32,000 nt of DNA from positions 480,001-512,000 of the forward strand of contig CP091279.1 of the NCBI GenBank assembly GCA_021650915.1, given 5' to 3'. The notes beneath the pieces were generated by a model that saw only the letters and a program-made list of their open reading frames with translations, was not told the DNA's origin and did not search any database. Positions 1-19,860 of this stretch are shown piece by piece. Source of the stretch: Candidatus Brocadia sp. (GTDB lineage Bacteria; Planctomycetota; Brocadiia; Brocadiales; Brocadiaceae). The stretch's first letter is position 1; each line of letters opens with the position of its first letter. The position numbers and the translations under genes were made by a program.

Positions 1-617
1 TGAACATTCAGGACAAAAAATGTGTGGTGGTGGGTGGTGGCAATGTTGCGTGGCGCAAGGTGTGCAGCCTGAAAGAGGCGGGCGCAAAAGTTACCGTAGT
101 GTCGCCTGACTTTTGTCCGGAACTGGAAAGAGAAACGGGTGTGGAACGGATTCAGCAGAAATACACTACGGATATCCTGAAAGGTGCCGCTCTTGTGGTT
201 GCCTCTACGGACGATGGCGTGGTGAATAAAAAGGTTTATAGCGATGCAATGGAGCGCGGGATTTTAGTGAATGTTGTCGATAAACCGGATTTGTGTTCCT
301 TTATTGTGCCGGCATCTATTCAGCGGGGCGATCTGTGCATCAGTATCTCAACGGGTGGGGCAAGTCCGGCGTTGGCCAGGAATATCAGAGAATACCTTGA
401 AGGACAATTCGGTGCAGAGTACGGTGAATTTACGCACCTTTTGTCAGAGGTGCGACAAAAAATGCTTTTGGAAATAAAAGATGAAGCAATAAGACGTGAT
501 ATCTTACAGCGTATTGCAGGGTTTGATATCCTTGAAATAATAAAGCGGAAGGGTGTATCGGAGGCGAAAAGGAAGATATTGGAGATCGTCTCTGAAAAAA
601 TTCCCGGTGATAAATAA
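1..617 (+). CDS. Precorrin-2 dehydrogenase / sirohydrochlorin ferrochelatase (short SirC/Met8/CysG-N type siroheme synthase), 5'-partial
   Basis: Frame 3 is open from the window edge (NIQDKKCVVVGGGNVAWRK...), so the listed GTG at 24 is probably internal. There is a Rossmann motif VVGGGNVA..K followed by VTVVSP. The ISISTGGASPALA motif is typical of the siroheme synthase N-terminal domain. Stop at 615-617. Confidence 0.8.
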   Translation, partial: NIQDKKCVVVGGGNVAWRKVCSLKEAGAKVTVVSPDFCPELERETGVERIQQKYTTDILKGAALVVASTDDGVVNKKVYSDAMERGILVNVVDKPDLCSFIVPASIQRGDLCISISTGGASPALARNIREYLEGQFGAEYGEFTHLLSEVRQKMLLEIKDEAIRRDILQRIAGFDILEIIKRKGVSEAKRKILEIVSEKIPGDK

Positions 618-774
618 GTCGACAAAATCTATAGACTTCTTTTTGCTTGCAAGATTTTTTTTAGCGTGTTAAGATTAAAACTATTTAGTTTACATTACCC
701 AACGTGTGGTATGGGTGGCATTTATTTAACGATTATTCGACATGACGATTCGTGTCATAAGACTGGGAGTTTAA

Positions 775-1665
775 ATGGCTGAAAAGAGTGCAAAGCAAAG
801 AGTAGACCTGAACGAATTAAAGTCAGGCGGTTTCATAAAACAGAATCAGAAAGACCTGTTTACGGTTAGGTTGAAAGTGCCGGGAGGAAGGATTACCCCG
901 GAAAAGTTGGCGCAGATTGCAGAGATTGCTAAAAAATACAGTCGGATGGGATTTTGTCATTTAAGCTTCAGGCAATCGGTGGAAATCGTTGGTGTGCATA
1001 TTGATGATTTTGATGCTGTGGTAAAAGAGTTGGCTGCGGTGGGACAAAAGGTTGCTTCCTGCGGTCCAAGGGTACGAGTCCCTACGGCATGCGGGGGCTG
1101 TGAATATAATCCCAACGGGATTATGGATACGCAATCAAAGGCATTGGAGGTCGACGAAAAGTTTTTTGGCATCCCATGTCCCCATAAATTTAAGATTGGA
1201 TTTTCTGGTTGCCCGATTGATTGTACGAGGACGCGGGAAATGGACTTGGGCTTTCAGGGAGTGGTTTACCCGGTATGGAGCAAGGATTTGTGTAACGGCT
1301 GTACCCTATGCGCTAAGGCGTGTCAGGAAGGCGCGATTATCTCTGATAAGGAGGGCAGACCGGTATTTGACGAATCTAAGTGCGTGTATTGCGGCGATTG
1401 TATCCGTGCGTGTCCAACAGACGCCTGGAAGGACAAGAAAAAGGGCTGGCTGGTGCGTACGGGGGGGAAACACGGAAGACATCCGCGCGAGGCCGATTCG
1501 GTGTTAAATTTTCTGCCGGATAATAAGGTTAACGATTTTGTTGACGCTACCGTAAAATGGTACAAGGAGAACGGCAAGCCGAAAGAGAGAATGGGTTCCT
1601 GCATAGACCGCGTTGGTTTAGAAAAGTTTAAGAAAGACGTCGTTGGTGCATTTCTAAAAAACTGA
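775..1665 (+). CDS. Small nitrite/sulfite reductase-family siroheme/[4Fe-4S] protein with an inserted 2x[4Fe-4S] ferredoxin domain (Dsr-like / low-molecular-weight SiR type)
   Basis: GGGAG RBS lies 5 nt upstream of the ATG. The N-terminus resembles the NIR_SIR ferredoxin-like half-domain (FTVRLKVPGGRITPEKLAQIAEIAKKY..HLSFRQSVEIVGV). Cys clusters TACGGCEYN and GCPIDC are present. Two ferredoxin motifs are CNGCTLCAKAC and CVYCGDCIRACP. Confidence 0.7.
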   Translation: MAEKSAKQRVDLNELKSGGFIKQNQKDLFTVRLKVPGGRITPEKLAQIAEIAKKYSRMGFCHLSFRQSVEIVGVHIDDFDAVVKELAAVGQKVASCGPRVRVPTACGGCEYNPNGIMDTQSKALEVDEKFFGIPCPHKFKIGFSGCPIDCTRTREMDLGFQGVVYPVWSKDLCNGCTLCAKACQEGAIISDKEGRPVFDESKCVYCGDCIRACPTDAWKDKKKGWLVRTGGKHGRHPREADSVLNFLPDNKVNDFVDATVKWYKENGKPKERMGSCIDRVGLEKFKKDVVGAFLKN

Positions 1666-1679
1666 CCTAAAAACTGATA

Positions 1680-2108
1680 TTGATAATCATGAAAAACAGA
1701 AAAAAATTTGTTATCTTTGCACATAGCGGAACGTATGATAAATTGTATCAGATTATTACGTTGGCTATTACGGCGGCATCGATGGGAAAAGAGACCTACA
1801 TTTTCCTCTTTTTCTGGGCATTAAAAAGATTCGTGAACGAAGAGTTTGATCCTGCAAGACTCGTTGGTGAATGCGGTGCAGAGGGTGAAAAATTGTTGAA
1901 AAAAATGCAGGCGCTAAATCCCATTTCACTCAAAGAATTACTGCATGACGTAAGGGCCATGGGAAATTTAAAAGTGTATGCTTGTACTGGCGCGGTGAAA
2001 CTGATGGAATTGGAAGAGGTGGTTGTCAAAACAAAAGTAGATGATATTCTGGGATTGACAACCCTTTTGGAGATAGCGGCTGGCGCTGAAACACAGTTGT
2101 TTATCTGA
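1680..2108 (+). CDS. DsrE/DsrF-like (COG2210 peroxiredoxin-like) sulfur-relay family protein
   Basis: About 140 aa. KKFVIFAHSGTYDKLYQ...ITAASMG at the N-terminus and a conserved Cys in VYACTGAVKLM fit the DsrE-fold family. The more likely start is the ATG at 1689 (MKNRKKF); the listed start at 1680 is TTG. Confidence 0.6.
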   Translation: MIIMKNRKKFVIFAHSGTYDKLYQIITLAITAASMGKETYIFLFFWALKRFVNEEFDPARLVGECGAEGEKLLKKMQALNPISLKELLHDVRAMGNLKVYACTGAVKLMELEEVVVKTKVDDILGLTTLLEIAAGAETQLFI

Positions 2109-2127
2109 CGGAAGATGAGGTTGTGTT

Positions 2128-3090
2128 GTGACAATTCGTATGACAGAGAAAACGGATATGAGATACCAGCCGAAGAAGGCCGGCGTTACTTCGATCCTGG
2201 ATAAGATCGGGAATACGCCTCTTTTAAAACTTAGCAGGGTTGTGCAGGGGTTAAGAAACAATGATGTGGAAATCTATGTCAAGGCAGAATGGTTAAACCC
2301 GGGCGGGTCGGTAAAGGATCGGGCTGCATTACGAATTGTTGAAGAGGGTGAAAAAACGGGCAGGTTAACCAGGGATACCGTCATCATAGACTCTACTTCC
2401 GGGAACACGGGTATTGCTTATGCCCTCATTGGCGCAAAAAAGGGATACCGGGTAACGTTAGTGATGCCGTTGAATGTTAGTGAAGAAAGAAAGAGAATCG
2501 TGCGTGCACTTGGGGCTACGATGATATTCACTGACCCGCTGCTGGGGTCTGATGGCGCCATGTCTGAAGCGAAAAGGATTGTGACTGCAGATCCTTCAAG
2601 GTATTTTTACGCCGACCAGTATAATAACGATGCCAATTGGAAAGCGCATTTTGAAACGACGGGGGTAGAGGTCTGGGAACAAACGGGAGGTGGCGTGACA
2701 CATTTTGTTGCGTGTCTGGGAACGAGCGGTACGCTTATGGGGACCGGCCGGCGGTTGAAGGAATACAATCCTGATATTCAGGTGGTTGCAGTTGAGCCCG
2801 CTACTCCCATGCACGGATTGGAAGGTATGAAGCATATGGCCACATCAGTTATCCCCGGCATTTATGACGAGCATTTTCCTGACAGGAAGATCGCCATAGA
2901 AACAGAAGACGCGTATATGTCAGTAAAAAGGCTTGCTGCGGAAGAAGGATTGTTTGTGGGATACTCTTCCGGAGCGGCGCTCGTGGCATCCATAAAAATT
3001 GCTAATGAAATTGAGACCGGCACCGTGGTTACGGTCTTTCCCGACAGAGGGGATCGTTATTTGAGTACGAGTTTTTGGGCTGGTGAGTAA
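2128..3090 (+). CDS. PLP-dependent cysteine synthase (CysK/CysM family)
   Basis: GNTPLLKL, the PLP-lysine motif NPGGSVKDRAA, SSGNTGIA and GTSGT are canonical for the beta-family cysteine synthases. GTG start with GATGAGG RBS. The adjacent JAMM protease suggests a CysM-type enzyme that uses a sulfur-carrier protein. Confidence 0.9.
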   Translation: MTIRMTEKTDMRYQPKKAGVTSILDKIGNTPLLKLSRVVQGLRNNDVEIYVKAEWLNPGGSVKDRAALRIVEEGEKTGRLTRDTVIIDSTSGNTGIAYALIGAKKGYRVTLVMPLNVSEERKRIVRALGATMIFTDPLLGSDGAMSEAKRIVTADPSRYFYADQYNNDANWKAHFETTGVEVWEQTGGGVTHFVACLGTSGTLMGTGRRLKEYNPDIQVVAVEPATPMHGLEGMKHMATSVIPGIYDEHFPDRKIAIETEDAYMSVKRLAAEEGLFVGYSSGAALVASIKIANEIETGTVVTVFPDRGDRYLSTSFWAGE

Positions 3091-3127
3091 AGAAAAGAGA
3101 GATTGCATCGGTTGAGGGATTGAAGGC

Positions 3128-3544
3128 ATGCTGTGTATTGACAAGAATAATCTCCGTGAAGTCGGGAATGAAGCAAAAAAAAGTTATCCTGTGGAGTGTT
3201 GCGGGTTATTAATTGGCACAAATACCTCAGAAAAAAAGGTGGTTGAAGTTCGTCCCATCCGAAATACGAATACGGAAAGAAGTCATGATAGATACGAAAT
3301 TGATGGCAGTGCGTTCGTGAAAGCCGATAAAGAGGCAGCTCGAAAAGGCCTTCAGATCATTGGTATATATCATTCTCATCCTGATCACCCGCCAGTCCCG
3401 TCAGCTTTTGATACAGAGCATGCTTGGTGCGGTTATTCTTACCTGATCGCCGCAGTGGAAAACGGAGAGACTCTCGAGATCAGATCGTGGGTGTTTGATG
3501 AAGAGAAAAAACAGTTTCAGGAAGAAGAAATAAATTTGTGCTAA
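3128..3544 (+). CDS. JAMM/MPN+ zinc metalloprotease (Mec+/Mov34 family)
   Basis: Conserved Glu (VECCGLLIG) plus the JAMM motif HSHPDHPPVPSAFD (HxHx7Sx2D). Size is 138 aa. Confidence 0.85.
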   Translation: MLCIDKNNLREVGNEAKKSYPVECCGLLIGTNTSEKKVVEVRPIRNTNTERSHDRYEIDGSAFVKADKEAARKGLQIIGIYHSHPDHPPVPSAFDTEHAWCGYSYLIAAVENGETLEIRSWVFDEEKKQFQEEEINLC

Positions 3545-3629
3545 GCGGTGATGGTAGGTATTATTAAAATAAAGACGATATTCTGAAGGGCTTTGATTTC
3601 GTGAACTTGCAATTTGCAAATAAGTCAAC

Positions 3630-3890
3630 ATGGAAGGTTCTAAAATGACAGAGGAAGAAAAGATGGCACCTGACGACAAAATTGATCTCAGAGGGGTGCT
3701 TTGTCCTATAAACTTTGTAAAAACAAAGTTAAAGCTGGAAATGATGGATTCTGGTCAGGTTTTGGAGGTGATTTTAGACGATGGTGAACCCATCAGAAGC
3801 GTCCCAAGGAGTATTAAAGAAGAAGGGCATAAAATTGTAAAAGTAGAGAATTTGGAGGGCGGATATCGTTTATTGATAAAAAAGTCATAA
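3630..3890 (+). CDS. TusA/SirA-like sulfurtransferase
   Basis: DLRGVLCPINFVKTKLKLEMMDSGQVLEVILDD has the TusA-family active-site Cys context, though it reads CPIN rather than CPxP. The start may be the ATG at 3645, which has a GGAAGG RBS 6 nt upstream. Confidence 0.7.
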   Translation: MEGSKMTEEEKMAPDDKIDLRGVLCPINFVKTKLKLEMMDSGQVLEVILDDGEPIRSVPRSIKEEGHKIVKVENLEGGYRLLIKKS

Positions 3891-3916: not shown

Positions 3917-3945
3917 AAAATTATTCTTGACTTTTCCTATCGATA
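3917..3945 (+). promoter_or_regulatory. Sigma70-like promoter for the Rieske/cyt b operon
   Basis: TTGACT at 3917-3922. It is followed by TATAAT at 3938-3943 (15-nt spacer) or TAATAT at 3940-3945 (17-nt spacer). It sits about 100 nt upstream of the Rieske start codon. Confidence 0.5.
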
Positions 3946-4041
3946 AATATAATATTCGCCTTTCATAAACTGAGAGTAATTATGCACAAAAGACCTTGAA
4001 TAATTAAAAAAAATTGCGGTTTTTTACCGGAGGAGAGCGTT

Positions 4042-4560
4042 ATGGAAAGAAAAGAAGAAAAAAAAGGTTTTTCATCTGAGAAGGAAGGGGGAATTTGGTT
4101 TACTTTTTCCCGAAGAAACCTTCTGACATTGGCTGGATGGGGTTTGTTTTTTGCTTCCATTGGGGCGTATTTATCGCAGATTATGGGGTATAAAGGTTTT
4201 TTTTACCCCAAGGTGCTTTTTGAGCCTTCACCGCGATTTTCTGTCGGGGACCCAAAAGCCTTTTCAGAAAATTCAGTAACAACCCTCAAGTCCAGAAAAA
4301 TATTTGTTGTGCGTGACGGAAATAGTTTCAAGGCTATATCAGTGGTATGTCAGCATTTGGGGTGTGCGGTAGAATTTTCCAAGGAAAAAAATATCTTTGA
4401 GTGTCCATGCCATGGTAGCAAGTACTATCGAAACGGGGTGAACTTTGCCGGCCCTGCGCCCAGACCTCTCAACCACTTTGAAATTATTTTGGATGACAGT
4501 GGTAGGCTGGTTGTTGATACGAGCAAAATTGTGCCACTTGAAACGGAGTTAGTTGTATAA
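4042..4560 (+). CDS. Rieske [2Fe-2S] subunit of a cytochrome b complex
   Basis: Cluster-binding boxes CQHLGC and CPCHGS are present. The N-terminus has a twin-arginine motif SRRNLLTLAG followed by a TM helix. GGAGGAG RBS. Confidence 0.9.
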   Translation: MERKEEKKGFSSEKEGGIWFTFSRRNLLTLAGWGLFFASIGAYLSQIMGYKGFFYPKVLFEPSPRFSVGDPKAFSENSVTTLKSRKIFVVRDGNSFKAISVVCQHLGCAVEFSKEKNIFECPCHGSKYYRNGVNFAGPAPRPLNHFEIILDDSGRLVVDTSKIVPLETELVV

Positions 4561-4608
4561 TCATGTGACAGTTTATAAAAAGAATATTTTTTAGAAAGTC
4601 AGTGTTTT

Positions 4609-6369
4609 ATGAGTCAAACGACTTTGCCAAAAAAAGGAATAAAAGCACTTCTTGATCTGGATTGGTTACAACAAAATATTCGTTGTCAGCATCGATGCCC
4701 AGCCCATATGGATGTTCCAGGCTATATCCGTTTAATTAGCCAGGGCAAATACGCAGAATCATACAAATTAATGAGAGAGACCAATCCTTTTCCCGCCGTA
4801 TGTGGATATGTTTGTCCGCACCCCTGTGAATCAAAATGTAAGCGTGGTGATTTTGATAGGCCGGTAGCAATAGATGCATTAAAACGATTCGTCACCGACC
4901 ATATTTTTAAAAATAAAATAAAAATTCCACCACCAACGGTAGCCAAGAGAGACGAAAAGATCGCGGTGATTGGGGCAGGTCCCGCTGGTTTAACGGCCGC
5001 GAATGACCTTGCCGGAATGGGTTATTCGGTGACCGTTTTTGAAAAGGAGTCTCAGGTTGGTGGCATGATGATGTGGGCGATTCCATCGTATCGGTTGCCG
5101 CGTGAGCAGATTATGTTTGACGTGAGCCAGATCGTTGCTCGCGGTGTTGAGATAAAAACAAACGCTTCTATTGGAAGTCCGGGAAAATCGATTCATGATT
5201 TATTCAAGGAAGGCTACAAAGCAGTATTTATTGCGGTTGGTGCGCAAAAAGGGAAAAGGCTTGAAATTCCAGGTGAGGAAGGTACGCAGGGTGTCATGGA
5301 TTGCCTGGAATTCCTGAAAAATGTGAATGACGGTGATGTAAGGAGCCCGGGGAAAAAAGTTGCGGTCATAGGTGGTGGTAATTCTGCTATTGATGCAGTG
5401 AGGACGGCCAAGCGTCTCTGTCAGGACGCATTTATCGTGTATCGAAGAACGAGAGGGGAAATGCCCGCTTTGCCTTGGGAAATTGAAGAGGCAGAACATG
5501 AGGGCATTCAATTCCATTTTTTGTCAGCGCCTATCAGGATTGTAACTGAACAAGGGAAAGTAAAGGCTCTGGAGTGTGTTAAAATGCAACTCGGTAAACC
5601 TGACAGCAGCGGAAGGAGACGGCCTGAGCCTGTTCCTAATTCAGAATTTACCATTGAGACGGATTGCATTATTACCGCAATTAGTCAGGAAGCCGATCTG
5701 AAGTTCCTTGGCGATGATTATGGTTTAAATGTCACCAAATGGGGCACGATTGCGGTAGATGAAAATCTCGTGACCAATAAAGCAGGTGTTTTTGCCGGAG
5801 GTGACGTAACGCTTGGCCCAAGCACGATTATCGAATGTATTGCGCAAGGGCATACTGCAGCGAAATCTATCGATAAATATATCAGAGGGGAAGAAATTCA
5901 AAAGCCCAAGGAAAAGGTCTGGGTGACTCTTTTAGAGAATGAGTTCGATGAGCGTGAGGGAAATTATGATGCTGTGCCTCGTCAGCAAATGGGATTGTTG
6001 CCCGTAGAAAAACGAGAGGGAACTTTTGATTTGGTAGAACTCGGTCTTACCGAATCTCAGGCTAAGATAGAAGCTTTGCGTTGTTTGAAGTGTGACCTCA
6101 GCATCAATGTGGAGACTAATGAATGTATTCTTTGTGGTCGTTGCAGCATGGTGTGTCCTGTAGGTGCCCTAAAGCAAGTGGATGTGAGCAACGAAGGCAA
6201 AGACTATCGTCCGTTTGTCAGTAAGGATGGAATAGTAATAAAATACACCGATGTGTGTATTCGGTGTGGGAATTGTAAAGATTGTCCGGTGAGCGTAATA
6301 ACCTTAAAGCGTGTGCTTTGGAAGCCGAATGAGGAAATAAACAAAACAATGGAAGAAACGGAGGAATAG
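4609..6369 (+). CDS. GltD-like NAD(P)H:FAD oxidoreductase subunit with N-terminal FeS site and C-terminal 2x[4Fe-4S] ferredoxin domain
   Basis: The N-terminal Cys pattern (CQHRCPAH...CGYVCPHPCESKC) resembles the glutamate synthase small subunit. Two dinucleotide folds are IAVIGAGPAGLTAA and VAVIGGGNSAIDA. GGD is also present. C-terminal motifs are CILCGRCSMVCP and CIRCGNCKDCP. No TM helix is evident. Confidence 0.85.
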   Translation: MSQTTLPKKGIKALLDLDWLQQNIRCQHRCPAHMDVPGYIRLISQGKYAESYKLMRETNPFPAVCGYVCPHPCESKCKRGDFDRPVAIDALKRFVTDHIFKNKIKIPPPTVAKRDEKIAVIGAGPAGLTAANDLAGMGYSVTVFEKESQVGGMMMWAIPSYRLPREQIMFDVSQIVARGVEIKTNASIGSPGKSIHDLFKEGYKAVFIAVGAQKGKRLEIPGEEGTQGVMDCLEFLKNVNDGDVRSPGKKVAVIGGGNSAIDAVRTAKRLCQDAFIVYRRTRGEMPALPWEIEEAEHEGIQFHFLSAPIRIVTEQGKVKALECVKMQLGKPDSSGRRRPEPVPNSEFTIETDCIITAISQEADLKFLGDDYGLNVTKWGTIAVDENLVTNKAGVFAGGDVTLGPSTIIECIAQGHTAAKSIDKYIRGEEIQKPKEKVWVTLLENEFDEREGNYDAVPRQQMGLLPVEKREGTFDLVELGLTESQAKIEALRCLKCDLSINVETNECILCGRCSMVCPVGALKQVDVSNEGKDYRPFVSKDGIVIKYTDVCIRCGNCKDCPVSVITLKRVLWKPNEEINKTMEETEE

Positions 6370-6435
6370 GAGGATAATTCTTATTATGGGGGGAGGAAAG
6401 AGTACACAAAAAATGGTGGAGAAAGGGATGTTTAC

Positions 6436-7206
6436 ATGAAGCTAATTCCTGATTTGATAAAAAAAATTACAGACAATGAAATTTGGAGGTCTGTATTTCG
6501 CCATGGCTACACAGATACCCCAAGGAACAGAGCTCTTCAAATCATAAGCAACGTATGGTTGCATTTGCACCCTGCAAAAGTGAGGGAGCATGGTACGAAG
6601 ATACGGTTTACCTGGTGTATGGGGGGGATAACATTTTTTATATTCCTGTTTGAAACAATAACAGGTATTCTTTTAATGTTTTATTACGTCCCCGATGTGA
6701 ACAGGGCATATGCAGATATCGTTGATTTAATGTATGTAGTGCCGTTTGGAAGGTTTTTGAGAAATTCTCACCGATGGGGCGCTCACGCAATGGTTATTAC
6801 CGTAAGCATTCATATGTTTCGGGTATTTTTAACCGGTTCGTATAAACCGCCAAGGCAGTTCAATTGGGTGGTGGGTGTCATTTTGCTGGTTCTCACATTT
6901 TTATTAAGTTTTACCGGCTACTTGTTGCCTTGGGATCAGTTAGGCTATTGGGCTATTACCGTAGGCACCAATATGGCGCGTGCAACGCCTTTTTTAGGCC
7001 ATGAAGGACCGTTTTCGTATATTCTGGGGATGAGAGCGGATAATGACGTTCGCTTCGCCCTATTAGGTGGAACGTCAATTGATGCTCCGGCATTGCTCAG
7101 GGCTTATGTATGGCACTGTATTGCAATACCGTTGATGGCATCAGCGCTTATGATGGTGCATTTCTGGAGAGTGCGCAAAGACGGTGGGATTTCCGGTCCT
7201 TTATAA
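6436..7206 (+). CDS. Cytochrome b6-type subunit (N-terminal half of cytochrome b)
   Basis: [23 protein letters not shown] gives H-x13-[14 protein letters not shown] is present. [17 protein letters not shown] gives H-x14-H, the b6-type spacing. WCMGGITF aligns with the CLGGIT motif whose Cys binds heme ci in b6f. Confidence 0.9.
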
Positions 7207-7256
7207 GAAGTGGTGATTTAGCATAATTTAGAGAGATATTTCTGAGGAGTGGTTCC

Positions 7257-7979
7257 ATGGAAGTTAGGCAGGAAAAGAAAGGAATGGTTGAAGTTAAGGA
7301 CGATAAGGTGTTTACATGGCCCACCCTGGTTGCTAAAGAATTTTTAGCGGCTATTTTTGTTACGGTTGGGCTGCTATTCTATTCGTACTTTGTAGACGCG
7401 CCTCTCAGGGAGTTGTCAAATCCTGGACAGGCAGAAAATCCGGCTAAGGCACCATGGTATTTTTTGGGTCTGCAAGAGGCATTGGTTTATTTTGATCCAT
7501 GGTATGCTGGTGTTATACTGCCAAGCATTATCATTGTAGGACTGATTCTCATTCCGTATTTGGATAATAACCCGAAGGGAAATGGTTATTATACTTTTAA
7601 GGAAAGAAAATTTGCCGTAACCACGTTTGTTTTCGGGTACATTTTTTGGTATGTCCTGATCTACATTGGTACGGCTCTGAGGGGGCCATTTTGGGCTTTT
7701 TTTTGGCCGTGGGAACCGTGGACGCACGATTTTCCTACCCCTCCGCCAATGCATGATTTGCCTTTGCCTTTAGGAGTTGTTCTTTTGGGCGGTTTTTATT
7801 TTGCGGGATTAGTGCTTCCGGCATTAGTAAAAAAAGATTTTTTCATGAAGTTGGGCGTTATTCGATATTCACTTACGATGGGGTTACTCCTGACGATGAT
7901 TGGGACGGTAATTAAAATGGTGTTTCGTCTGGCGTTTAATGTAAAGTATATTATCGCTACGCCTTGGATTAACATATGA
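7257..7979 (+). CDS. Cytochrome b C-terminal half / subunit IV-like membrane protein
   Basis: The Qo-loop motif region reads NPAKAPWYFLGLQEAL, so APWY stands in place of PEWY. It is followed by several hydrophobic helices. At 240 aa it is longer than canonical PetD. Confidence 0.8.
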   Translation: MEVRQEKKGMVEVKDDKVFTWPTLVAKEFLAAIFVTVGLLFYSYFVDAPLRELSNPGQAENPAKAPWYFLGLQEALVYFDPWYAGVILPSIIIVGLILIPYLDNNPKGNGYYTFKERKFAVTTFVFGYIFWYVLIYIGTALRGPFWAFFWPWEPWTHDFPTPPPMHDLPLPLGVVLLGGFYFAGLVLPALVKKDFFMKLGVIRYSLTMGLLLTMIGTVIKMVFRLAFNVKYIIATPWINI

Positions 7980-8028
7980 ATTGTCGTATAATGGCTACAT
8001 TTTAAGTATTTCCAAAAATAGGTGAAAT

Positions 8029-9117
8029 ATGAGCTTACAAAGATTGATTTTTTTTGTTTTGAGCGCCTTGTTTTTCATCGCTACTTCGATGTGGCTTAAA
8101 GATGAGTTTAAGCCTGGATGGATTGAACATCAGAAGAAGTATTATGAAGAGCAAACGGTAAAAGTTGAAAAGGAGTTTTCGGCGGCGACTGTTGCAAAGG
8201 AAAAAGAGCTGTTAGGCAAGCGTCTGGCATCCCTGAAGAGACCGAAATACGAGATTAAGCAGATACTTCTGAAGGGAGATTACAGCTGGAGTAAACAGCA
8301 AAATGGAGATAAAGTTGACCGATGTATGACTTGTCACATAGATGAGGATAAATTAAAGGCCGCACATCCAAACGTAAAGGATTTTCCGTTTGATATTTAC
8401 GGGTGTACCGTCTGCCATGGTGGTATTGGAAGGGCACTGAGTGAAGAAGTTGCACATGAGGGAATGCATTATCATAAGAGACAAATGGAACTGAGGATAA
8501 CATCGGCTGAAACGATGTTCGGTTTTTGGAGTGAATTGGCGACGCTGACACCTGAAGAAAGTGATCCAAGCCTACGGTTGGAAATGGGAGACTTTAAGAA
8601 GTATAGCATTACCGGCGATAAAGCGGTGTATGTTGGAAGTCAAAAATGTCTCAAATGTCATAAAGGTTTGACCTCTCCTCATGTTGAAAGATGGCAAAGG
8701 ATAAAGTTCAAGACGTTTGAACATGTAAAGAATGCCCCTGATTATATTGCCGGTAACGAGGAATACCGAAAGACCTGCCTGAAGTGCCACACGACAGGAT
8801 ATGACGAGGCAACAGGGAAATATTCTGAAGAGGGAGTTACCTGTGAGGCATGTCATGGGGCCGGAGAGGTGTTTAGCTATTTTATGGAGATCGGCAAGGC
8901 GCCTGAAGGGCAAAAAATAGCAAAAGTCGGAACGTTTGGAACACCTTACAATGTGTGTGGGCCTTGTCACCACACTCGGAATCATGAGATGCGTCTGAAG
9001 TTTTTTCAGGAAAGAGGCGGTTCAGATGAGTGGTTTTTCCCGCAACACACAACGCCATATAAGACAGGCTTTTCTAAAAACGACGAAGCTGCCGTGCCAT
9101 TACCAAAGATGCACTGA
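8029..9117 (+). CDS. Membrane-anchored hexaheme cytochrome c
   Basis: There are six CxxCH motifs: CMTCH, CTVCH, CLKCH, CLKCH, CEACH and CGPCH. The N-terminal TM helix is LIFFVLSALFFIATSMWL. Confidence 0.9.
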   Translation: MSLQRLIFFVLSALFFIATSMWLKDEFKPGWIEHQKKYYEEQTVKVEKEFSAATVAKEKELLGKRLASLKRPKYEIKQILLKGDYSWSKQQNGDKVDRCMTCHIDEDKLKAAHPNVKDFPFDIYGCTVCHGGIGRALSEEVAHEGMHYHKRQMELRITSAETMFGFWSELATLTPEESDPSLRLEMGDFKKYSITGDKAVYVGSQKCLKCHKGLTSPHVERWQRIKFKTFEHVKNAPDYIAGNEEYRKTCLKCHTTGYDEATGKYSEEGVTCEACHGAGEVFSYFMEIGKAPEGQKIAKVGTFGTPYNVCGPCHHTRNHEMRLKFFQERGGSDEWFFPQHTTPYKTGFSKNDEAAVPLPKMH

Positions 9118-9187
9118 AGTTGATTGTTGTTATCTGCAAAATTTATAGTTTCTAAAAACGCTGGTTTTGAGGGGAGGAGGCTTAATT

Positions 9188-10933
9188 ATGAAGTTGTTGA
9201 AATTGGGCGCGATTTTATTCGCAGCCCCTTTAATGTGGAGTTTGCAGGCTGGCAAACTACAAGCACAGTCTGAAACTGAGTTAAAAGAAATGCAAAAGAA
9301 GGCTACCAGCTATTATGACATCTTGTATCCCAATGATACCTTGAAGGATTGGTTTACCAACAATGTCGGGCTGGAAAAGGGTGCTGGGCCTTGGCAAAAT
9401 CTCTACAAGCCAGTTCCGTTACAAATGTATTGGTTCCCTGTCCGCCACTACGTCAAACCCGATGGGACGTATTATGATCAGTTGCTTGAAAAATATAAAC
9501 CATCTGATTGTGTGAAATGCCATGAAGAAGTAACACCGGGGTTTGTTCATGATTGGAGAGATTCTACCCACGCAAATCCTAAAAAAAATCCCCGTTTTGC
9601 TGAGAAAACTCAGCAAATTGAAAAGTTAATCGGTCGGGAACTTAAAGAAGTTACCTGTAGTGATTGCCATGGCAAGGATCATAAAGAACTGCATATGCCA
9701 ACCCCCGCAACCTGTGGTGAGTGTCATCCTCAGCAAACAACTGAATTTATGAGCGAGGCAGAACGCGGTCGTCCAAATCATATTGAAGGCTTAGCGGCAA
9801 ATGTAATACCACCCTGGTATCCAGAAATGTTCCGCAGGGGATATCCAGCCGCTCAGTTTGGGTGCGATCTTTGTCATGCCACAGATCGTTGTAATATTTG
9901 CCACACAAGGCATAAGTTTGCAGCCTCAGAAGGAAGAAGACCTGAGGCCTGCATGAGTTGTCACATGGGTTTTGATCACCCGGATGCAGAGACCTATGGT
10001 GAATCCAAAATGGGATACATTTATCATTTAGAAGGAGAACACTGGGATTGGGAAAAACCATTGGCAGAAATTGTACCCGGCAAGGACTACAGAACGCCAA
10101 CCTGTCAGTTCTGTCACATGGATCAAGGAAATGGGAAGTTTGCTCATAACCCTGTTACAAAAGGTGTCTGGAGAATGGGAACGGTGCCGCCTAAGGGAAT
10201 AGATTACAAATCTTCATTAAAGGATTATCCGCACGGCATAAATTTACCACCTTTAAATTACAGTCTTGATATCTATTCTCCTGAAAATAAAAGGAGGTCG
10301 GAACAATGGGTATCCGTTTGTAGCAAGTGTCACAGTCCCAGGTTTGCCAGACTATATCGTGAAAACTTGAATGATTTCATGTTTGAAATGTGGAGATTAC
10401 AGGATCGGGCGCAGGCCATTTTGGACGATATTGTAGCAAATGATGCCTTTGAAGTACCTATAAGACAAAGGGATATCTTCCCGCTCGGTGATATATTAGC
10501 TGATGCGCTTGGCCCTGGACTATTAGGGGATGCGGTATATAACGCATTTAAGACCAAGGCGGGCAAGGTTCCTGTTATTGGTCCAATTCTCGGATTGCAT
10601 GGTTTGTTTGCAACAGGAAGGAATAATCCTTCAGAGATCGAAATTACCTATGCCGATATGTGGTTTGGTGACAAGGCGCATGCCTATAAAGGTGTTGCTC
10701 ATGGGCAGCAGGATATTGCCTGGTGGTATGGTGCCGCAAAAGTATATCAGAAGATTAATATCCTGGAAAGTCAGGCGATAGCGTTGAAGAGGGGAAAGAA
10801 AGTTGATGAGTTTATGGCAGCAAAGGGAAGAAAGAATGTTGCCGGTATCGTTGGAAGTATTGTTGGTATCGTAGCGGTACTTATGTTTGGTGCTGCTTTA
10901 TGGAAAAAGAGACGTGAGACGCAAAATTCATAA
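9188..10933 (+). CDS. Octaheme hydroxylamine-oxidoreductase-like (HAO family) protein with C-terminal membrane anchor
   Basis: There are eight CxxCH motifs: CVKCH, CSDCH, CGECH, CDLCH, CNICH, CMSCH, CQFCH and CSKCH. The signal peptide is MKLLKLGAILFAAPLMWSLQA. The C-terminal TM helix is VAGIVGSIVGIVAVLMFGAALW followed by KKRR. The ATG at 9188 follows a GAGGGGAGGAGG RBS, while the listed 9167 start is TTG. Confidence 0.9.
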   Translation: MKLLKLGAILFAAPLMWSLQAGKLQAQSETELKEMQKKATSYYDILYPNDTLKDWFTNNVGLEKGAGPWQNLYKPVPLQMYWFPVRHYVKPDGTYYDQLLEKYKPSDCVKCHEEVTPGFVHDWRDSTHANPKKNPRFAEKTQQIEKLIGRELKEVTCSDCHGKDHKELHMPTPATCGECHPQQTTEFMSEAERGRPNHIEGLAANVIPPWYPEMFRRGYPAAQFGCDLCHATDRCNICHTRHKFAASEGRRPEACMSCHMGFDHPDAETYGESKMGYIYHLEGEHWDWEKPLAEIVPGKDYRTPTCQFCHMDQGNGKFAHNPVTKGVWRMGTVPPKGIDYKSSLKDYPHGINLPPLNYSLDIYSPENKRRSEQWVSVCSKCHSPRFARLYRENLNDFMFEMWRLQDRAQAILDDIVANDAFEVPIRQRDIFPLGDILADALGPGLLGDAVYNAFKTKAGKVPVIGPILGLHGLFATGRNNPSEIEITYADMWFGDKAHAYKGVAHGQQDIAWWYGAAKVYQKINILESQAIALKRGKKVDEFMAAKGRKNVAGIVGSIVGIVAVLMFGAALWKKRRETQNS

Positions 10934-10961
10934 TGGCTCTTTATTCTAAAAGTCAAAAAAC

Positions 10962-10998
10962 AAAAAAGGCATCTTATTTGAGATGCCTTTTTTGTTTG
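10962..10998 (+). terminator. Rho-independent terminator of the Rieske/cyt b-HAO operon
   Basis: A perfect 13-bp stem pairs AAAAAAGGCATCT (10962-10974) with AGATGCCTTTTTT (10981-10993). The loop is 6 nt and the 3' arm ends in a T6 run. Confidence 0.85.
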
Positions 10999-12030: not shown

Positions 12031-12756
12031 ATGTTTATGCAGTACAGAAATATACAATCTATAACATGGGTATTATGCCTGACGTTTTGTGTTGTAGCCG
12101 GGTGTGGTAATAAGGCAAGCCATCATAACAATGAAGGGATTGTGCTTTATAACAAGGGAAAATACACGGAGGCAATTGGAGAATTCAAAAAAGCTCTGGA
12201 ATTGAATCCAAATCTTTATGATGCCCATTATCACTTGGGAATTGCATATTATGCAAAGGGTATGATTGACGAATCAGTTACGGCACTAAAAAATGCAATT
12301 GAGGTAAGTCCAAATGAACCGAAAGCGCATTATAACATCGCCTTCGCATATGTAGCCAAAGAGGATGTTGCAAAAGCATTGGTGGAATATCAAAAGGCAA
12401 TCGAGCTGTTCGCAGCACGAAAAGATAAAAAAGAGGCAGATGCATACCTTTACTTGGCGGTTGCCTACAGTTTGATTGAAAGACATGATGAAGCGATAGC
12501 TGCGTGTCAAAAGGCAATAGAAATTAATCCTGAAATGGAAGATGCCCATTATCTTTTGGGAGTTTGTTACTATAAAAAAGAGATGATTGAGGCAGCTATT
12601 GCAAAGTTTAAAAAAGTTGTTCAGTTGAATCCAAAATCAGAAAAGGCGCATAACCTCTTGTTCACTATTTACGATAAACTGGGGAAAACGGAAGATGCTG
12701 TTGAAGAGGACCGCATATTGAAACAAATTGAAAGGGAACGGCGCGAGCAACGTTAG
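12031..12756 (+). CDS. TPR-repeat lipoprotein
   Basis: The signal peptide carries the lipobox VVAGC. It is followed by about six TPR units (repeated AxxxxxKAIELNP / AHYxLGxxY patterns). The track lists a TTG start at 12004, but the ATG at 12031 gives a canonical signal peptide. Confidence 0.8.
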   Translation: MFMQYRNIQSITWVLCLTFCVVAGCGNKASHHNNEGIVLYNKGKYTEAIGEFKKALELNPNLYDAHYHLGIAYYAKGMIDESVTALKNAIEVSPNEPKAHYNIAFAYVAKEDVAKALVEYQKAIELFAARKDKKEADAYLYLAVAYSLIERHDEAIAACQKAIEINPEMEDAHYLLGVCYYKKEMIEAAIAKFKKVVQLNPKSEKAHNLLFTIYDKLGKTEDAVEEDRILKQIERERREQR

Positions 12757-14477
12757 ACATGAGTATTCATATCAGAATTGTAAAATCGATAGGTGTTTTT
12801 GCCTTGTTCTTTTGATAAATACATTGCAACATCCGCATTTTTGATAAGCGAGCTTATGTCGTTGGTATCGAGTGGATAAAGACTTATACCAATACTGACC
12901 GTGGTGTAGATCTCGTGACTTTCCAGAAAGAAGGGCTTTGATAGGGCGTCAAGGATTTTATTTGCGACAATCGCCGCATTTAATGGATAAGTAATTTCCG
13001 GAAGTATAATGAGGAATTCATCTCCTCCGGTGCGGGCAATCGTATCACTTTCACGCACGCATTTTTTTAGTTGTTCGACAACGGCTAAAAGCAGTAAATC
13101 TCCTGTGTAATGTCCTAATGAGTCATTAATAGTTTTAAAATTATCCAGATCAATAGCCATGAGGGCCATAATGGTTCCCATACGCTTTGCATGGACTATG
13201 GCTACTTGGAGACGGTCTTGAAATAAATTCCGGTTTGGTAAATTCGTAAGGGGGTCGTGGTAAGCCATATGGGTTATGAGCGCCTCAGCCTTCTTGTGCG
13301 AAATTGCATTTCCTGTGATCTCTGCCATAATGCGCAACCGTGCGATGTCTTCTTCGCGCCACGGACCAGTTGTAACGACATTATCAAATCCGATAAATCC
13401 TACCAGTTCATTTTCCGCATATATTGGTAAAATCAAGAATGCTTTAATGCCCTCTTTCTCAAATTCTTCTTTTTCAGCGGCAGCTTCCTGAGGCATTTGA
13501 GAAACATCGGCAATATGGATTATATTACCTGCGTGCAAGTTCTCCATCAGCCAGGGACGCATGGCAGCGGGTATGTTATGACGATGATAAATTTCAGGAA
13601 TAACCCCTTCATTGCACCATTCATGGGTATTATCCATAATACTACCGTTATCATAAAACTGAAAGAGGTAGGTTCTGCTGGCATTGCTCAACTGACCAGC
13701 ATCAGTCAGTGCTTTGAAGACTGCCTTGTTAAAGTCAGAAGTAATAAGGAATTTTGTGGATATACTGGCAACAGTTTTTTCGAAGTCGATTCTCCGCTTG
13801 AGAGCATTCTCAGTCTGCTTGTGCTCAGCGATCTTTAACTGCAATCTCCTGTTGGCCTGTATGAGTGCTGAGGTACGCCTTTTGATTTTCAGTTCTAAGT
13901 CTTTATACTTCTGATGTAAAACATTTTCCGCTTGTCTTCTCGTGATGAATAGTCCAATAAAGCGACCAGTGGAAGCTAACAGCATGAGGATGTCGTTGTT
14001 AAATGGTTGTGATGTATAGCTTAGAAATACGAAGACGCCCATTACATTATCTTCATGTATTGCAGGGATACCCAAAGCTCCTTGAAAGCCCTCTTGCGTA
14101 GCGACTTTTGTATGATAGAAATGAGTGTTATGGACGATATCCTGGATCCAGACAGGTTTTTTAGCAGTATAAACAATTCCTGGCAATCCAACACCCGGTG
14201 AAAAAACAATTTGACTGGTTATTTTTTTATATTCAGGAATATTTACTGATGGTTTATACCAGACTTCCTCATTGCGTAACACGTTGTTCTTATTATCAAC
14301 TATCCAGTATTCACCAAGCGCTAATTCCAGATTTTCACAGATAGTTTGAAGAATTTTTAAAACAACCTTATCAGGTGTGGTTAACTCAGCCAGTATGCGC
14401 ATTATGACATGCAATTCACGACATCGCTCAGACAGATTACTCGTTGCCGGGTTATGTTCTGTGTTGAATAAATTCAT
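12753..14477 (-). CDS. GAF-GAF-coiled coil-GGDEF diguanylate cyclase
   Basis: The C-terminal GGDEF domain has an intact active site (RTGGDEFLIIL). An RxxD I-site (RESD) lies 5 residues upstream. Two GAF-like regions are separated by a coiled coil (LELKIKRRTSALIQANRRLQLKIAEHKQTE). Confidence 0.85.
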   Translation of the reverse strand: MNLFNTEHNPATSNLSERCRELHVIMRILAELTTPDKVVLKILQTICENLELALGEYWIVDNKNNVLRNEEVWYKPSVNIPEYKKITSQIVFSPGVGLPGIVYTAKKPVWIQDIVHNTHFYHTKVATQEGFQGALGIPAIHEDNVMGVFVFLSYTSQPFNNDILMLLASTGRFIGLFITRRQAENVLHQKYKDLELKIKRRTSALIQANRRLQLKIAEHKQTENALKRRIDFEKTVASISTKFLITSDFNKAVFKALTDAGQLSNASRTYLFQFYDNGSIMDNTHEWCNEGVIPEIYHRHNIPAAMRPWLMENLHAGNIIHIADVSQMPQEAAAEKEEFEKEGIKAFLILPIYAENELVGFIGFDNVVTTGPWREEDIARLRIMAEITGNAISHKKAEALITHMAYHDPLTNLPNRNLFQDRLQVAIVHAKRMGTIMALMAIDLDNFKTINDSLGHYTGDLLLLAVVEQLKKCVRESDTIARTGGDEFLIILPEITYPLNAAIVANKILDALSKPFFLESHEIYTTVSIGISLYPLDTNDISSLIKNADVAMYLSKEQGKNTYRFYNSDMNTHV

Positions 14478-14963: not shown

Positions 14964-16132
14964 TTGCAAAAGCTTGTATAATTTTTAATGAAAAGTACCG
15001 TTCGTCATGAAATCCATAAGCTTTTCTTTTGATAACTTTGATCTTATTATTAACCCCTTCGAGTTTACTGGTATGAATTTTATAATCACAGTGATTCAAG
15101 ATTCCGTAGCGGTATTTTGTAAGCATATTTGCAAACGTATTCACGACAGAATAGTTGAGCGTTTTCGCTAAGAGGCTCCATTCATCAATGGCTTTTCTCG
15201 CCCACGTCCGTGAGGTATAGGTCCAAATATGTTTGAGCTTATCTTTAAGAATCAGAACGGTATTTATGGTTTCATTAAGCGACAAGAGCTGTTTGAGATG
15301 TTCTCGATGTTTTTTCCTGCGAATATTTCGTTTGTTTTTTAACAAAAGATATTTTGAACTCTTTTTGGTATTCAGCATTTCGCACCTTGTCAATAACTTT
15401 ACCAAAACTTGAAACCACATGAAACAGGTCAAAGACTATCTTAACATGAGGCACGTGCTTTTTTACTGCATGAATATAAGGATCCCACATATCCATGGCA
15501 ATGGCCTCAAGCGCCTGCCTTTGTTCCTCTGTCATACCCGCAAAGAAGGTTCCCAGCGTTTCTTTTGTTCTTTCCTTTCCCACCCAGACTACGCGGCCAC
15601 TCAGATAGTCCAGAACAACAGTCAAATAGCGCTGTCCCTTCTTAACAGAGATTTCGTCTACTGCCAGTATGCGAAGATTCTGATAATCTGTCTGCGCGTA
15701 TTGTCGTTCCAGAAAAAACTTGTCGATGGTTTTTACGGTTTTCCAGTTAATTCCAAAATGTTTTGCAACTTCGGTTACGGTTAACACTTTACACAATTCG
15801 TGAATATACGCTGCTAAACGATGCGTAACACGACTGTAGGGTTGAAAAAACCCCAAGCCTTCAACTACAATTCGATTGCACGGCTCACAGGCAATCTTAC
15901 GATACGAACAATGTATCCATACGCGAACTGAACCAGGATTCAGATCCCGCAAAGATCGTTTGTCATGACGGTAAATGCGCTGTGCTTTGCTGCCACACGC
16001 ATGACATATTGGACGAAATCGTTCATCGGGCACGGCAGTAAGCTGAGATATCTCAGCATCAGGAAAAACAGTTTGCTTCGTAATTCTTACCCGCTGAAAA
16101 GGAAAATATGGTAATATACTTAATGGGGACAT
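14959..16132 (-). pseudogene. ISL3-family transposase, frameshifted (two overlapping ORFs, 15275-16132 and 14959-15432)
   Basis: The N-terminal zinc-finger region is CHACGSK...CEPCN. The DDE region includes ILAVDEISVKKGQRYLTVV and AMDMWDPYI. The C-terminal part (YLLLKNKRN...LEGVNNKIKVIKRKAYGFHD) continues in the +1 frame. The switch maps to the T5 run at 15362-15366 (A5 on the coding strand), and removing one base restores ...AEYQKSSKYLLLKN. Confidence 0.85.
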
Positions 16133-16145
16133 TGCTGGTCTCCTG

Positions 16146-16151
16146 TAAATA
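16146..16151. repeat. TAAATA direct repeat, copy 1 (left flank of tandem IS)
   Basis: The identical hexamer also lies at 18002-18007 and 19855-19860. Each copy directly abuts an IS end. Confidence 0.85.
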
Positions 16152-18001
16152 GTGTTTGAACGGAAACCCCCCAGAGCCCTGTAAAGTAAGGAGAAGCTGG
16201 TGAAAAATGTTCATGAAAGTCATTGAATTTTTTCGGGTAAAAGGGTAAAATATGGCGAAAATGAAGGGATTCTGGGTATAAAGAGTCCAAATATTCGGTT
16301 CATTAACCCACTAGCCAAAGGACATTCGATAGAAGATGAGAAAGAGATTTGAGCAGCAATTGAAGCTTGGCATCATACCCATTTCAGGGGTAAAACTGCC
16401 AATAAAGAGTCGAGATGAGCTACCACCGATACTGAGGGCGTTGCAACATATCTATGTTACACCGGAGTTGAACGAGGAGGTATTCCGGATATTAGAGGCG
16501 AAGGTAACGAAGGGGAAGAAAAAGACGGGAAGATATGGGATGGATTTATGGCATATTTTGGTGTTGTCGGTGGTAAGATTAGGGTTAGATGCCGATTATG
16601 ACAGGTTGGAGGATTTTGCCAACCATCACAAACTTATCAGGCAGATAATGGGGGTTGAGACGGCATTTGGAGAGGCGAAGGTTTTTTCGATGCAGAGCAT
16701 CAAGGACAATATAAGATTGTTGGATGAGGAGACCCTCAGGCAGATAAATGAAGTGGTGATATCATCGGGGCATCAGTTGGTTAAAAAAAAGGACGAAGGA
16801 CTGTGTATTAAGGTGGATACGTATGTGTTAGAGACGAATGTACACTTTCCGGCCGATATGAATTTATTGTGGGATGCGGGACGCAAGAGTCTGGACATGA
16901 TAGAGGATGCAATAGAGGAAGGCATCCTGGCGGGGAAAGGATGGCGCAAGAGCAAATATTGGAGGAGAGAGTTAAAAAAGCTGATGAGGATAAGCGCAAA
17001 GGCGTCAAGCAGCGGGGGGGAAAAACAAGGAAGAGCATGTGAGGAGTTACTTGGAATTATCGAGGGGTTTGAGTGAAAAGATAGGAGCGAGTCTGTTAGC
17101 CATCTACGAAAAGGTGCTAACGACGAACCAGGTAGACAAGCATGCAGGGAAAATAGGGACACTGGAGTATTTTCACGGGATGTTGAATAAACAGATAGAC
17201 CTGGTGGAGAGAAGGGTGATCCGGGATGAGGTAATACCGGCGGCAGAAAAGGTTCATTCGTTGTTTGAGCCGCATACGGAGTGGCTGTACAAAGGCAAGT
17301 CAAACAAAAGGGTAGAGTTGGGACATAATATTCTGGTAGCAAGCGATCAGTGGGGTTTCATCGTGGACCATGTGGTAGGAGAAAAACAGGCGGATGTATC
17401 GTTGGTAATTCCATTGGCAGATAGGTTGTTGAGCCGTTACGGAGAAGGCACAATAAAGAGTATAAGTTTTGATAAAGGTTTTTACAAGAAAGAGAATAAA
17501 GAGTTGCTGAGTTTGTATATACCAGAGGTAATCCTTCCCAAGAAGGGCAAGAAGAATAAGGCGGAACAGGAAGAGGAATCGGGTAAGACATTTAAGAAGC
17601 TAAGGCACAAGCACTCGGCGGTAGAATCGGATATCAATCGTTTGGAGCATCACGGCTTGGATAGGTGTCCGGACAAAGGGCTGCATGCCTTTAAAAGATA
17701 TTGTGCAATGGGCGTGTTAGCTGCGAATTTGCACAAGCTGGGAAACGTGCTGCAGGAGAAGGCACGGAAGCAGTGCGAAAAGTTGCGAAAAGCCGCCTAA
17801 GCAAGCAAAAAACACGAAGAAAAACAGTCTGCCGGGAGGCAGGTACGCCCAGACAAGGCTAAAATAAAGGGGAAAACAAGGGAAATATGTAAAAGAACAG
17901 TATTTTTGCCAAAAACCCTAATCTCAAATCTTAAAATTATCTATTGGTAAATAGAAAATCGACCTCGCACTTTTACAAAAAGTGCGTTTTCGTTCAGACA
18001 C
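16152..18001 (+). mobile_element. IS element copy A (1850 bp). DDE transposase of the IS4/IS5-like superfamily; possibly the ISNCY/ISDol1 group, family unverified
   Basis: The imperfect terminal IRs are GTGTTTGAACGGAAAC and, reverse-complemented, GTGTCTGAACGAAAAC. TAAATA flanks both sides. Copy A is identical to copy B except for 3 homopolymer indels and 1 SNP. Confidence 0.85.
16336..17800 (+). pseudogene. IS transposase, copy A, frameshifted at a G7 run (17014-17020)
   Basis: ORFs 16336-17076 and 17039-17800 together correspond to one protein of about 487 aa. Copy B has G6 at the equivalent site and reads through (..KASSSGGKNKEEHVRSYLEL..). Motifs include VDTYVLETNVHFPxD, SFDKGFY and HSAVESDINRLEHHGLDRC. 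Confidence 0.8.
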
Positions 18002-18007
18002 TAAATA
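18002..18007. repeat. TAAATA direct repeat, copy 2 (junction between the tandem IS copies)
   Basis: It is the only sequence between the right IR of copy A (ends 18001) and the left IR of copy B (starts 18008). Confidence 0.85.
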
Positions 18008-19854: not shown

Positions 19855-19860
19855 TAAATA
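19855..19860. repeat. TAAATA direct repeat, copy 3 (right flank of tandem IS)
   Basis: It directly follows the right IR of copy B. After it the ISL3 sequence resumes. Confidence 0.85.

Follow-up and report, generated by a model that had tools for sequence, protein, structure and literature searches.

Kartal et al. (2013) proposed that two Rieske/cytochrome b complexes of the anammox bacterium Kuenenia stuttgartiensis, complex 3 (R/b-3) and complex 2 (R/b-2), reduce NAD(P)+ by quinol bifurcation. R/b-3, which is encoded by kuste4569-4574, is also treated by de Almeida et al. (2016) and by a structural study in Proteins in 2025 (PMC12954380), and its homologues are commonly sought in anammox genome papers. 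The gene cluster, its name, its proposed function and its structural modelling are therefore already known for Kuenenia. Here we describe the corresponding locus in a stretch of 32,000 nt from Candidatus Brocadia sp. (contig CP091279.1, positions 480,001 to 512,000; “the window”), with emphasis on a flavoprotein gene at 4609-6369 on the forward strand, which encodes a predicted NAD(P) oxidoreductase subunit with flavin adenine dinucleotide (FAD) and four Fe-S clusters. All coordinates are positions in the window, and residue numbers refer to the window proteins unless Kuenenia or NfnA is named.

The flavoprotein gene has an ATG start and encodes 586 aa. It belongs to a six-gene operon (4042-10933) with gaps of 48-66 nt between the genes, and it is located 48 nt after the gene of a Rieske protein (4042-4560) and 66 nt before a cytochrome b6-type gene (6436-7206). 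The Pfam assignments of these two neighbours confirm the position that an earlier note, made from the sequence alone, had given for it. The six genes are collinear with kuste4569-4574, with protein identities of 70-90%, and the synteny with Kuenenia extends beyond the operon to the upstream genes and to a downstream arginase-family gene. The flavoprotein itself is 76.6% identical to Kuste4570 over 581 aa (E=0, 1066 bits) and 92-94% identical to proteins of named Brocadia species; the Kuenenia orthologue (P0070) is named at source “putative NAD(P) oxidoreductase, FAD-containing subunit”. Because of the collinearity, the identities of 70-90% and the match of the Rieske protein to the crystal structure of Kuste4569 (PDB 9rk4), the cluster is almost certainly the Brocadia orthologue of R/b-3, and the flavoprotein is the orthologue of Kuste4570. 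A chance open reading frame is ruled out by E-values down to 0 and by 8000 homologues.

Two Pfam domains above the respective cut-offs make up most of the flavoprotein, i.e. Fer4_20 (PF14691, residues 23-103, E=8.7e-24, 84 bits) and Pyr_redox_2 (PF07992, residues 117-414, E=4.4e-34, 118.7 bits). Fer4_20 is the Fe-S domain of dihydropyrimidine dehydrogenase (DPD) and of GltD. In the window protein it is encoded at 4675-4917 (+) and contains Cys26, 30, 65, 69, 73 and 77 as well as Lys92, which would bind two clusters beside the FAD. The stretch 4972-5451 (+) encodes the FAD motif GAGPAG (122-127), the NAD(P) motif GGGNSA (255-260) and the beta2 motif IVYRRTR (276-282), and the presence of the first two bears out the two dinucleotide-binding folds recognised in the earlier note. 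The C-terminal region (residues 492-560; 6082-6288, +) comprises a CxxC motif at 492/495, a 2x[4Fe-4S] ferredoxin domain and Arg511. The ferredoxin domain, which the earlier note had described as an extra C-terminal domain, was found with Fer4/Fer4_7 matches at residues 499-561 and with both quoted Cys motifs, namely CILCGRCSMVCP at 506-517 (C506/509/512/516) and CIRCGNCKDCP at 550-560 (C550/553/556/559). From these motifs, four Fe-S clusters and a single FAD are expected, the same count as that given for the Kuenenia protein in PMC12954380.

The flavoprotein contains no membrane segment, as had been noted before: the highest 19-residue Kyte-Doolittle hydropathy is 1.23, in comparison with a threshold of 1.6 and with maxima of 2.0-2.4 for the adjoining membrane subunits. 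An N-terminal signal peptide was not found in its sequence either, and because there is no export signal the protein would be expected to stay in the cytoplasm, i.e. at the n-side of the membrane.

By sequence, the closest relatives with solved structures are the NfnA subunits of Bfu-type NfnABC transhydrogenases (9bov_A, E=1.7e-113, with an alignment that spans only residues 104-619 of 1178; 9n5u_A, E=1.3e-112). They are followed, in this order, by StnC (8oh5_C), NfnL of NfnSL (4ylf_B, 5jca_L), GltD and DPD. A Foldseek search with the well-predicted flavin core only gave a probability of 1.00 to NfnL, GltD and DPD and thereby repeats the sequence result. The NCBIfam model PRK12771 spans the flavoprotein from end to end. 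The earlier note had likened the N-terminal Cys cluster to that of the glutamate synthase small subunit; this holds for the fold, but the window protein has six Cys and not the eight of a true GltD, and NfnL and NfnA are nearer. “NfnL/NfnA-like NADPH module” is thus a more exact description than “GltD-like”, which applies to the fold only.

The alignment with NfnA is informative for the cluster next to the FAD. Cys30, Cys69, Cys73 and Lys92 (codon 4882-4884) are aligned with Cys108, Cys147, Cys151 and Lys170 of Caldicellulosiruptor (Csac) NfnA. According to cryo-EM, these four residues of NfnA bind the [4Fe-4S] cluster A7, which receives its electrons from the FAD (PMC11829005). In the 2025 study of Kuenenia the proximal site was modelled as a [3Fe-4S] cluster with a buried lysine nearby (PMC12954380). 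Judging from the aligned ligands, the cluster nearest to the FAD probably has Cys3-Lys ligation and is of the [4Fe-4S] type, like that of NfnA, rather than the [3Fe-4S] cluster of that model. In addition, the NADPH-side motif of NfnA, VLYRRTREEMPA, matches IVYRRTRGEMPA of the window protein, and YRRTR-EMPA agrees residue for residue. Because the YRRTR motif matches that of the NADPH-specific NfnA, the flavoprotein is predicted to be NADP(H)-specific.

To describe the conservation of gene order, an alignment of the flavoprotein was used as query for a profile scan of bacteria and archaea with one genome per species, and the gene neighbourhoods of the best 80 loci were compared. Fifty-two of these loci have identities of 58-93% (all others, 28 loci, have 44% or less), and the drop between the two groups is sharp. 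The 52 loci are labelled as Brocadia, Jettenia, Kuenenia, Loosdrechtia, Scalindua and Brocadiaceae, apart from a few short contigs of metagenome-assembled genomes (MAGs) with other labels, and they include two paralogous operons. At all 52 loci, as far as the contigs extend, the Rieske gene is located directly upstream, and the genes of cytochrome b, subunit IV, the hexaheme cytochrome and the HAO-like protein are located downstream. No Rieske or cytochrome b gene adjoins the homologue at any of the 28 distant loci. The nearest full-length homologue from outside the anammox bacteria (L055, Oscillospiraceae, 39% identity) is NfnA-like and has an adjoining NuoF-like gene, by which we classify it as a soluble Bfu-type enzyme.

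Single residues are conserved as well. In 48 orthologues of the flavoprotein, 17 Cys are invariant (26, 30, 65, 69, 73, 77, 232, 492, 495, 506, 509, 512, 516, 550, 553, 556 and 559), as are Lys92 and Arg511, and the YRRTR motif is present in 41 of the 48. In 38 orthologues of cytochrome b, His23, His43, His45, Cys61, His112, His126, His227, His242 and Arg247 are invariant. The predicted interface residues (His43, Arg247, Arg511), the cluster ligands and the heme cN Cys are thus conserved in the sequences as the published model predicts.

This model rests on AlphaFold3 predictions for Kuste4569-4573, in which the flavoprotein docks on the n-side with high core confidence, and four clusters lead to the FAD in steps of no more than 15 Å (PMC12954380). 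The chain begins at an extra heme b that was also predicted, with His43 from each of the two cytochrome b chains as ligands and with contacts to Arg247 (cytochrome b) and Arg511 (Kuste4570) (PMC12954380). The joint structure prediction with cytochrome b that the earlier note had suggested is therefore available for the Kuenenia complex, and its modelled docking side and cluster chain are as that note had envisaged. The further idea of the note, an n-side subunit that would link the low-potential chain to NAD(P)(H), agrees with the conserved operon, the invariant interface residues and the published view. With it, the note arrived again at what Kartal et al. (2013) had proposed.

Taking the models, the gene order and the redox potentials together, we infer that the flavoprotein is the n-side NADP(H)-binding flavo-Fe-S subunit of R/b-3, docked to the membrane subunits and involved in NAD(P)+ reduction. 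For the whole mechanism including its direction, as put forward by Kartal et al. (2013) and PMC12954380, we estimate a probability of about 60%. According to this mechanism, menaquinol would be oxidised at the Qp site. One electron would run downhill, first to the Rieske cluster with its high potential and then via the hexaheme cytochrome and the octaheme HAO-like protein. Its acceptor would be located in the anammoxosome and is probably nitrite, which the HAO-like subunit would reduce to NO. The other electron would cross the membrane via hemes bP, bN and cN, possibly continue through the extra heme b on His43 of the two cytochrome b chains, and then reach the FAD through four clusters, the C-terminal pair ([4Fe-4S]) first and the N-terminal pair second. 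The FAD would gather two electrons and reduce NADP+, so that quinol bifurcation would drive uphill NADPH synthesis in place of the re-reduction of quinone. The potential of the Kuste4569 Rieske cluster was measured to be +303 mV, and because of this value the potential of heme bP could be as low as about -475 mV (PMC12954380). If this mechanism is true, quinol bifurcation of the Q-cycle type would drive NAD(P)H synthesis and not proton translocation alone. It would also explain the source of low-potential reductant for CO2 fixation in a chemolithoautotroph that lives on ammonium and nitrite. The question is relevant to nitrogen cycling worldwide and to the use of anammox in wastewater treatment. 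The contribution of the window is one more orthologue, together with conservation data that back the published model.

Several points weigh against this mechanism. The docking geometry stems from AlphaFold3 models of the Kuenenia proteins in which the Fe-S clusters were placed by hand from homologues, and without the predicted extra heme, heme cN and the first cluster are 20 Å apart (PMC12954380). Our own monomer model, based on an alignment of 11 sequences, has a mean predicted local distance difference test score (pLDDT) of 56.8, with values below 50 for residues 1-106 and 431-586, and neither cluster geometry nor an interface was derived from it. The literature contains no biochemical measurement of quinol:NAD(P)+ activity for any orthologue. 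Furthermore, the module runs in the NADPH-oxidising direction in the closest solved relatives (PMC11829005). The last point leads to the main rival, i.e. that NADPH is oxidised, that the electrons enter heme cN/bN through the Fe-S chain, and that menaquinone is reduced at the Qn site, or that the complex is a reversible valve. Such a reverse flow could be likened to the proposed input from ferredoxin:NADP+ reductase (FNR) and ferredoxin into the chloroplast b6f complex during cyclic electron flow. The solved homologues NfnA, NfnL, GltD and DPD all oxidise NADPH and send the electrons down an Fe-S chain (for NfnA and NfnL, singly from the FAD; PMC11829005), the Lys-ligated proximal cluster is conserved, and the sequence does not fix the direction. 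On the other hand, NADPH oxidation by this route would be a large waste of energy, as the NADH dehydrogenases of anammox bacteria pump protons or sodium, and the Rieske potential of +303 mV fits a b chain of very low potential for NAD(P)+ reduction (both PMC12954380); an autotroph also needs a source of NAD(P)H. We consider the reverse direction to have a minor, though appreciable, probability.

The other alternatives concern the nature of the flavoprotein itself. It might be an independent soluble oxidoreductase, of the NADPH:ferredoxin type or specific for another partner, that has only its transcription in common with the complex and remains undocked. The lack of a membrane segment, the occurrence of the same domain cassette in soluble Bfu/NfnABC enzymes and the end-to-end coverage by PRK12771 are compatible with this explanation, but the position between the Rieske and cytochrome b genes is kept at 52 of 52 loci from five genera and in two paralogous operons. 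Arg511 and the His residues of the n-side cytochrome b extension are invariant, and the published AlphaFold3 model docks the subunit with high core confidence (PMC12954380), so that an undocked enzyme appears very unlikely. Even less probable is a role of the FAD as a site of flavin-based bifurcation as in NfnSL, which would split or merge electrons, with the Fe-S chain towards cytochrome b as one branch and another partner as the other. The identity of 35-41% and the common fold with NfnL (4ylf_B, 5jca_L), the FAD of which bifurcates, would be in line with it. However, the operon contains no gene of an NfnS-like [2Fe-2S]/FAD partner, and the FAD of the closer relative NfnA is the non-bifurcating end of a linear chain (PMC11829005). 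A true GltD that is located here by chance has a negligible probability. Fold and motifs agree, and relatives are named “glutamate synthase beta chain or related oxidoreductase” in databases, but real GltD proteins lack the dicluster C-terminal domain. As a candidate, GltD was rejected on the scores, which stay below the cut-offs of TIGR01317 (227 versus 448 bits), TIGR01318 (284 versus 483) and TIGR01316 (372 versus 472), and no gltB gene is found nearby.

The orthologues contain a second flavoprotein clade, which occurs in Scalindua-type genomes (L040-L044, L046 and L048; L041 and L047 are from one MAG) and has 60-66% identity and the same six-gene operon. In most of these loci the match is found at about 7001-8800 in the numbering of the locus. 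The second clade has VCLESK in place of YRRTR (residues 276-282; window positions 5434-5454) and carries about 25 inserted residues behind the second Rossmann helix. Because of this replacement, the second clade may have a different nucleotide preference and use NAD(H) rather than NADP(H). One could go further and envisage two nucleotide-specific complexes, a YRRTR form that delivers NADPH and a Scalindua VCLESK form that uses NAD(H), as a membrane-coupled and quinol-driven pair that would set the NADH/NADPH balance, in addition to a Lys-ligated proximal [4Fe-4S] cluster; we regard this extended scheme as unlikely. The Cys3-Lys proximal cluster and the Scalindua-type VCLESK copy of the operon may be points that have not been stated before.

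The remaining operon genes encode the host complex, which is of the b6f type, with a split cytochrome b6, a subunit IV and a Rieske protein. The Rieske [2Fe-2S] subunit (4042-4560, +; Pfam Rieske, E=5.6e-12; orthologue of Kuste4569) has a Tat-like FSRRNLL motif at the N-terminus and one hydrophobic anchor; it is 81% identical to the Kuenenia protein and matches 9rk4 with E=7.8e-58. The cytochrome b6-type subunit (6436-7206, +; Pfam Cytochrome_B, E=5.3e-42; orthologue of Kuste4571) is 90% identical to the Kuenenia protein and matches cytochrome b6 (6rqf_I) with E=2.9e-43. All four heme-ligand His are present (112, 126, 227 and 242), and Cys61 is aligned with Cys35 of b6, the cysteine that binds heme cN covalently. 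The N-terminal stretch, which is on the n-side in b6f, is longer than that of b6 and contains His23, His43 and His45. The subunit IV-like membrane protein (7257-7979, +; Cytochrom_B_C, E=3.5e-4; orthologue of Kuste4572) matches subunit IV 1vf5_B with E=0.0055 and is 78% identical to the Kuenenia protein; hydropathy shows five hydrophobic segments, and the published Kuenenia model also has five helices (PMC12954380). The families to which both membrane proteins (6436-7206 and 7257-7979) were also assigned take their names from an operon for selenite/tellurite reduction, which suggests that b6-type complexes with multiheme partners form a wider group.

The operon contains no cytochrome f as high-potential c-type subunit; it encodes a hexaheme and an octaheme cytochrome c instead. 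The hexaheme cytochrome c, which replaces cytochrome f/c1 (8029-9117, +; orthologue of Kuste4573), has six CxxCH motifs, a Cytochrome_C554 match, an N-terminal anchor or signal, and 70% identity to the Kuenenia protein. The HAO-like octaheme cytochrome c (9167-10933, +; Multi-haem_cyto, E=6e-48; orthologue of Kuste4574) has eight CxxCH motifs and a signal peptide, and a transmembrane segment at 556-580 anchors its C-terminus in the membrane. It is 81% identical to the Kuenenia protein in an alignment that begins at window residue 8, and because of this beginning translation probably starts at ATG 9188 rather than at TTG 9167, the start of the mechanically called open reading frame. Because of their N-terminal hydrophobic signals, both multiheme proteins would be located on the p-side, i.e. 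in the anammoxosome lumen. The operon is closed by a palindromic hairpin (10958-10997) with a stem of 17 bp and A/T runs on its flanks, which is likely to be a two-way terminator. A promoter scan yielded 17 sites, in comparison with 16.1 +/- 4.3 in shuffled sequence, i.e. no excess, so that the site at 3927-3955 is a candidate promoter only. An Rfam search of the window gave no match.

The genes immediately before the operon (24-3890) are syntenic with Kuenenia. They encode the N-terminal domain of sirohaem synthase, a small protein similar to sulfite/nitrite reductase into which a ferredoxin domain is inserted, a DsrE-like protein, a CysK/CysM-like enzyme that depends on pyridoxal phosphate, a JAB protease of the prokaryotic type and TusA. 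This set resembles a module for sulfur-carrier-based sulfite reduction and cysteine synthesis. Downstream, two genes past the operon (arginase-family and TPR), a convergent gene at 12753-14477 (-) encodes a diguanylate cyclase with a double GAF domain and a GGDEF domain. An element of about 1.85 kb is present twice in tandem at 16146-19860, with 99-100% identity and with DDE_Tnp_1 transposase open reading frames split over two frames; a fragment of an ISL3-family transposase (15275-16132, -) is located just upstream of it. In a protein of 1244 aa (25548-29282, -), an MscS-type mechanosensitive channel domain is confined to the C-terminus, and Pfam gave no match in the N-terminal ~1000 residues.

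The comparison with known systems is closest for Kuste4570, which has the residue numbering, the six genes, the flanking genes, all Cys, Lys92 and Arg511 in common with the window protein. The latter has five additional C-terminal residues and comes from the genus Brocadia, and a functional difference is not detectable. Kustd1483, the NAD(P) oxidoreductase of R/b-2 (kustd1480-1485), represents the same concept. According to PMC12954380 its fold is the same too, and an extra heme b contacted by an Arg is again predicted. In contrast to the flavoprotein of R/b-3, its gene is not located between those of the Rieske protein and cytochrome b, the multiheme partners are different, and an HAO-like subunit is missing; Kustd1483 was not among the best 80 loci of the genome scan.

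The NfnA group (9bov, 9n5u, 8oh5; NfnABC/StnABC) has 42-46% identity with the window protein and has in common with it the NADPH motif YRRTR, the Cys3-Lys proximal [4Fe-4S] cluster, the subsequent CxxC and cluster region, and the FAD at the end of a linear Fe-S wire. However, NfnA is an Fdh/NuoG-like fusion that docks to NuoF/NuoE-like subunits in a soluble enzyme, whereas the wire of the window protein ends in a small dicluster ferredoxin domain, and its neighbours are a membrane-bound cytochrome b6 and a Rieske protein. A Bfu-type NfnA is ruled out, as the dicluster domain is the last one of the protein (586 residues), which has neither an Fdh-like fusion nor a NuoF-like neighbour. NfnL, GltD and the N-terminal half of DPD have Fer4_20 and the two Rossmann domains in common with it, but they lack the C-terminal 2x[4Fe-4S] domain and have NfnS, GltB or fused DPD domains, respectively, as partners. 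The large subunit of NfnSL is ruled out as well, as there is no adjacent NfnS ([2Fe-2S] and a second FAD), and the neighbours are a Rieske protein and cytochrome b.

The chloroplast and cyanobacterial b6f complexes have the split cytochrome b6 and subunit IV, the covalent heme cN at the n-side and the Rieske protein in common with the window complex. The b6f complex is also reported to associate with FNR, so that an NADP(H) flavoenzyme at the n-side is a common idea of both systems. FNR is, however, an unrelated and loosely bound protein without Fe-S clusters, and its gene is located outside the pet operon. The window complex, in contrast, has an operon-encoded Fe-S wire subunit, a hexaheme and an octaheme cytochrome in place of cytochrome f, and a five-helix subunit IV.

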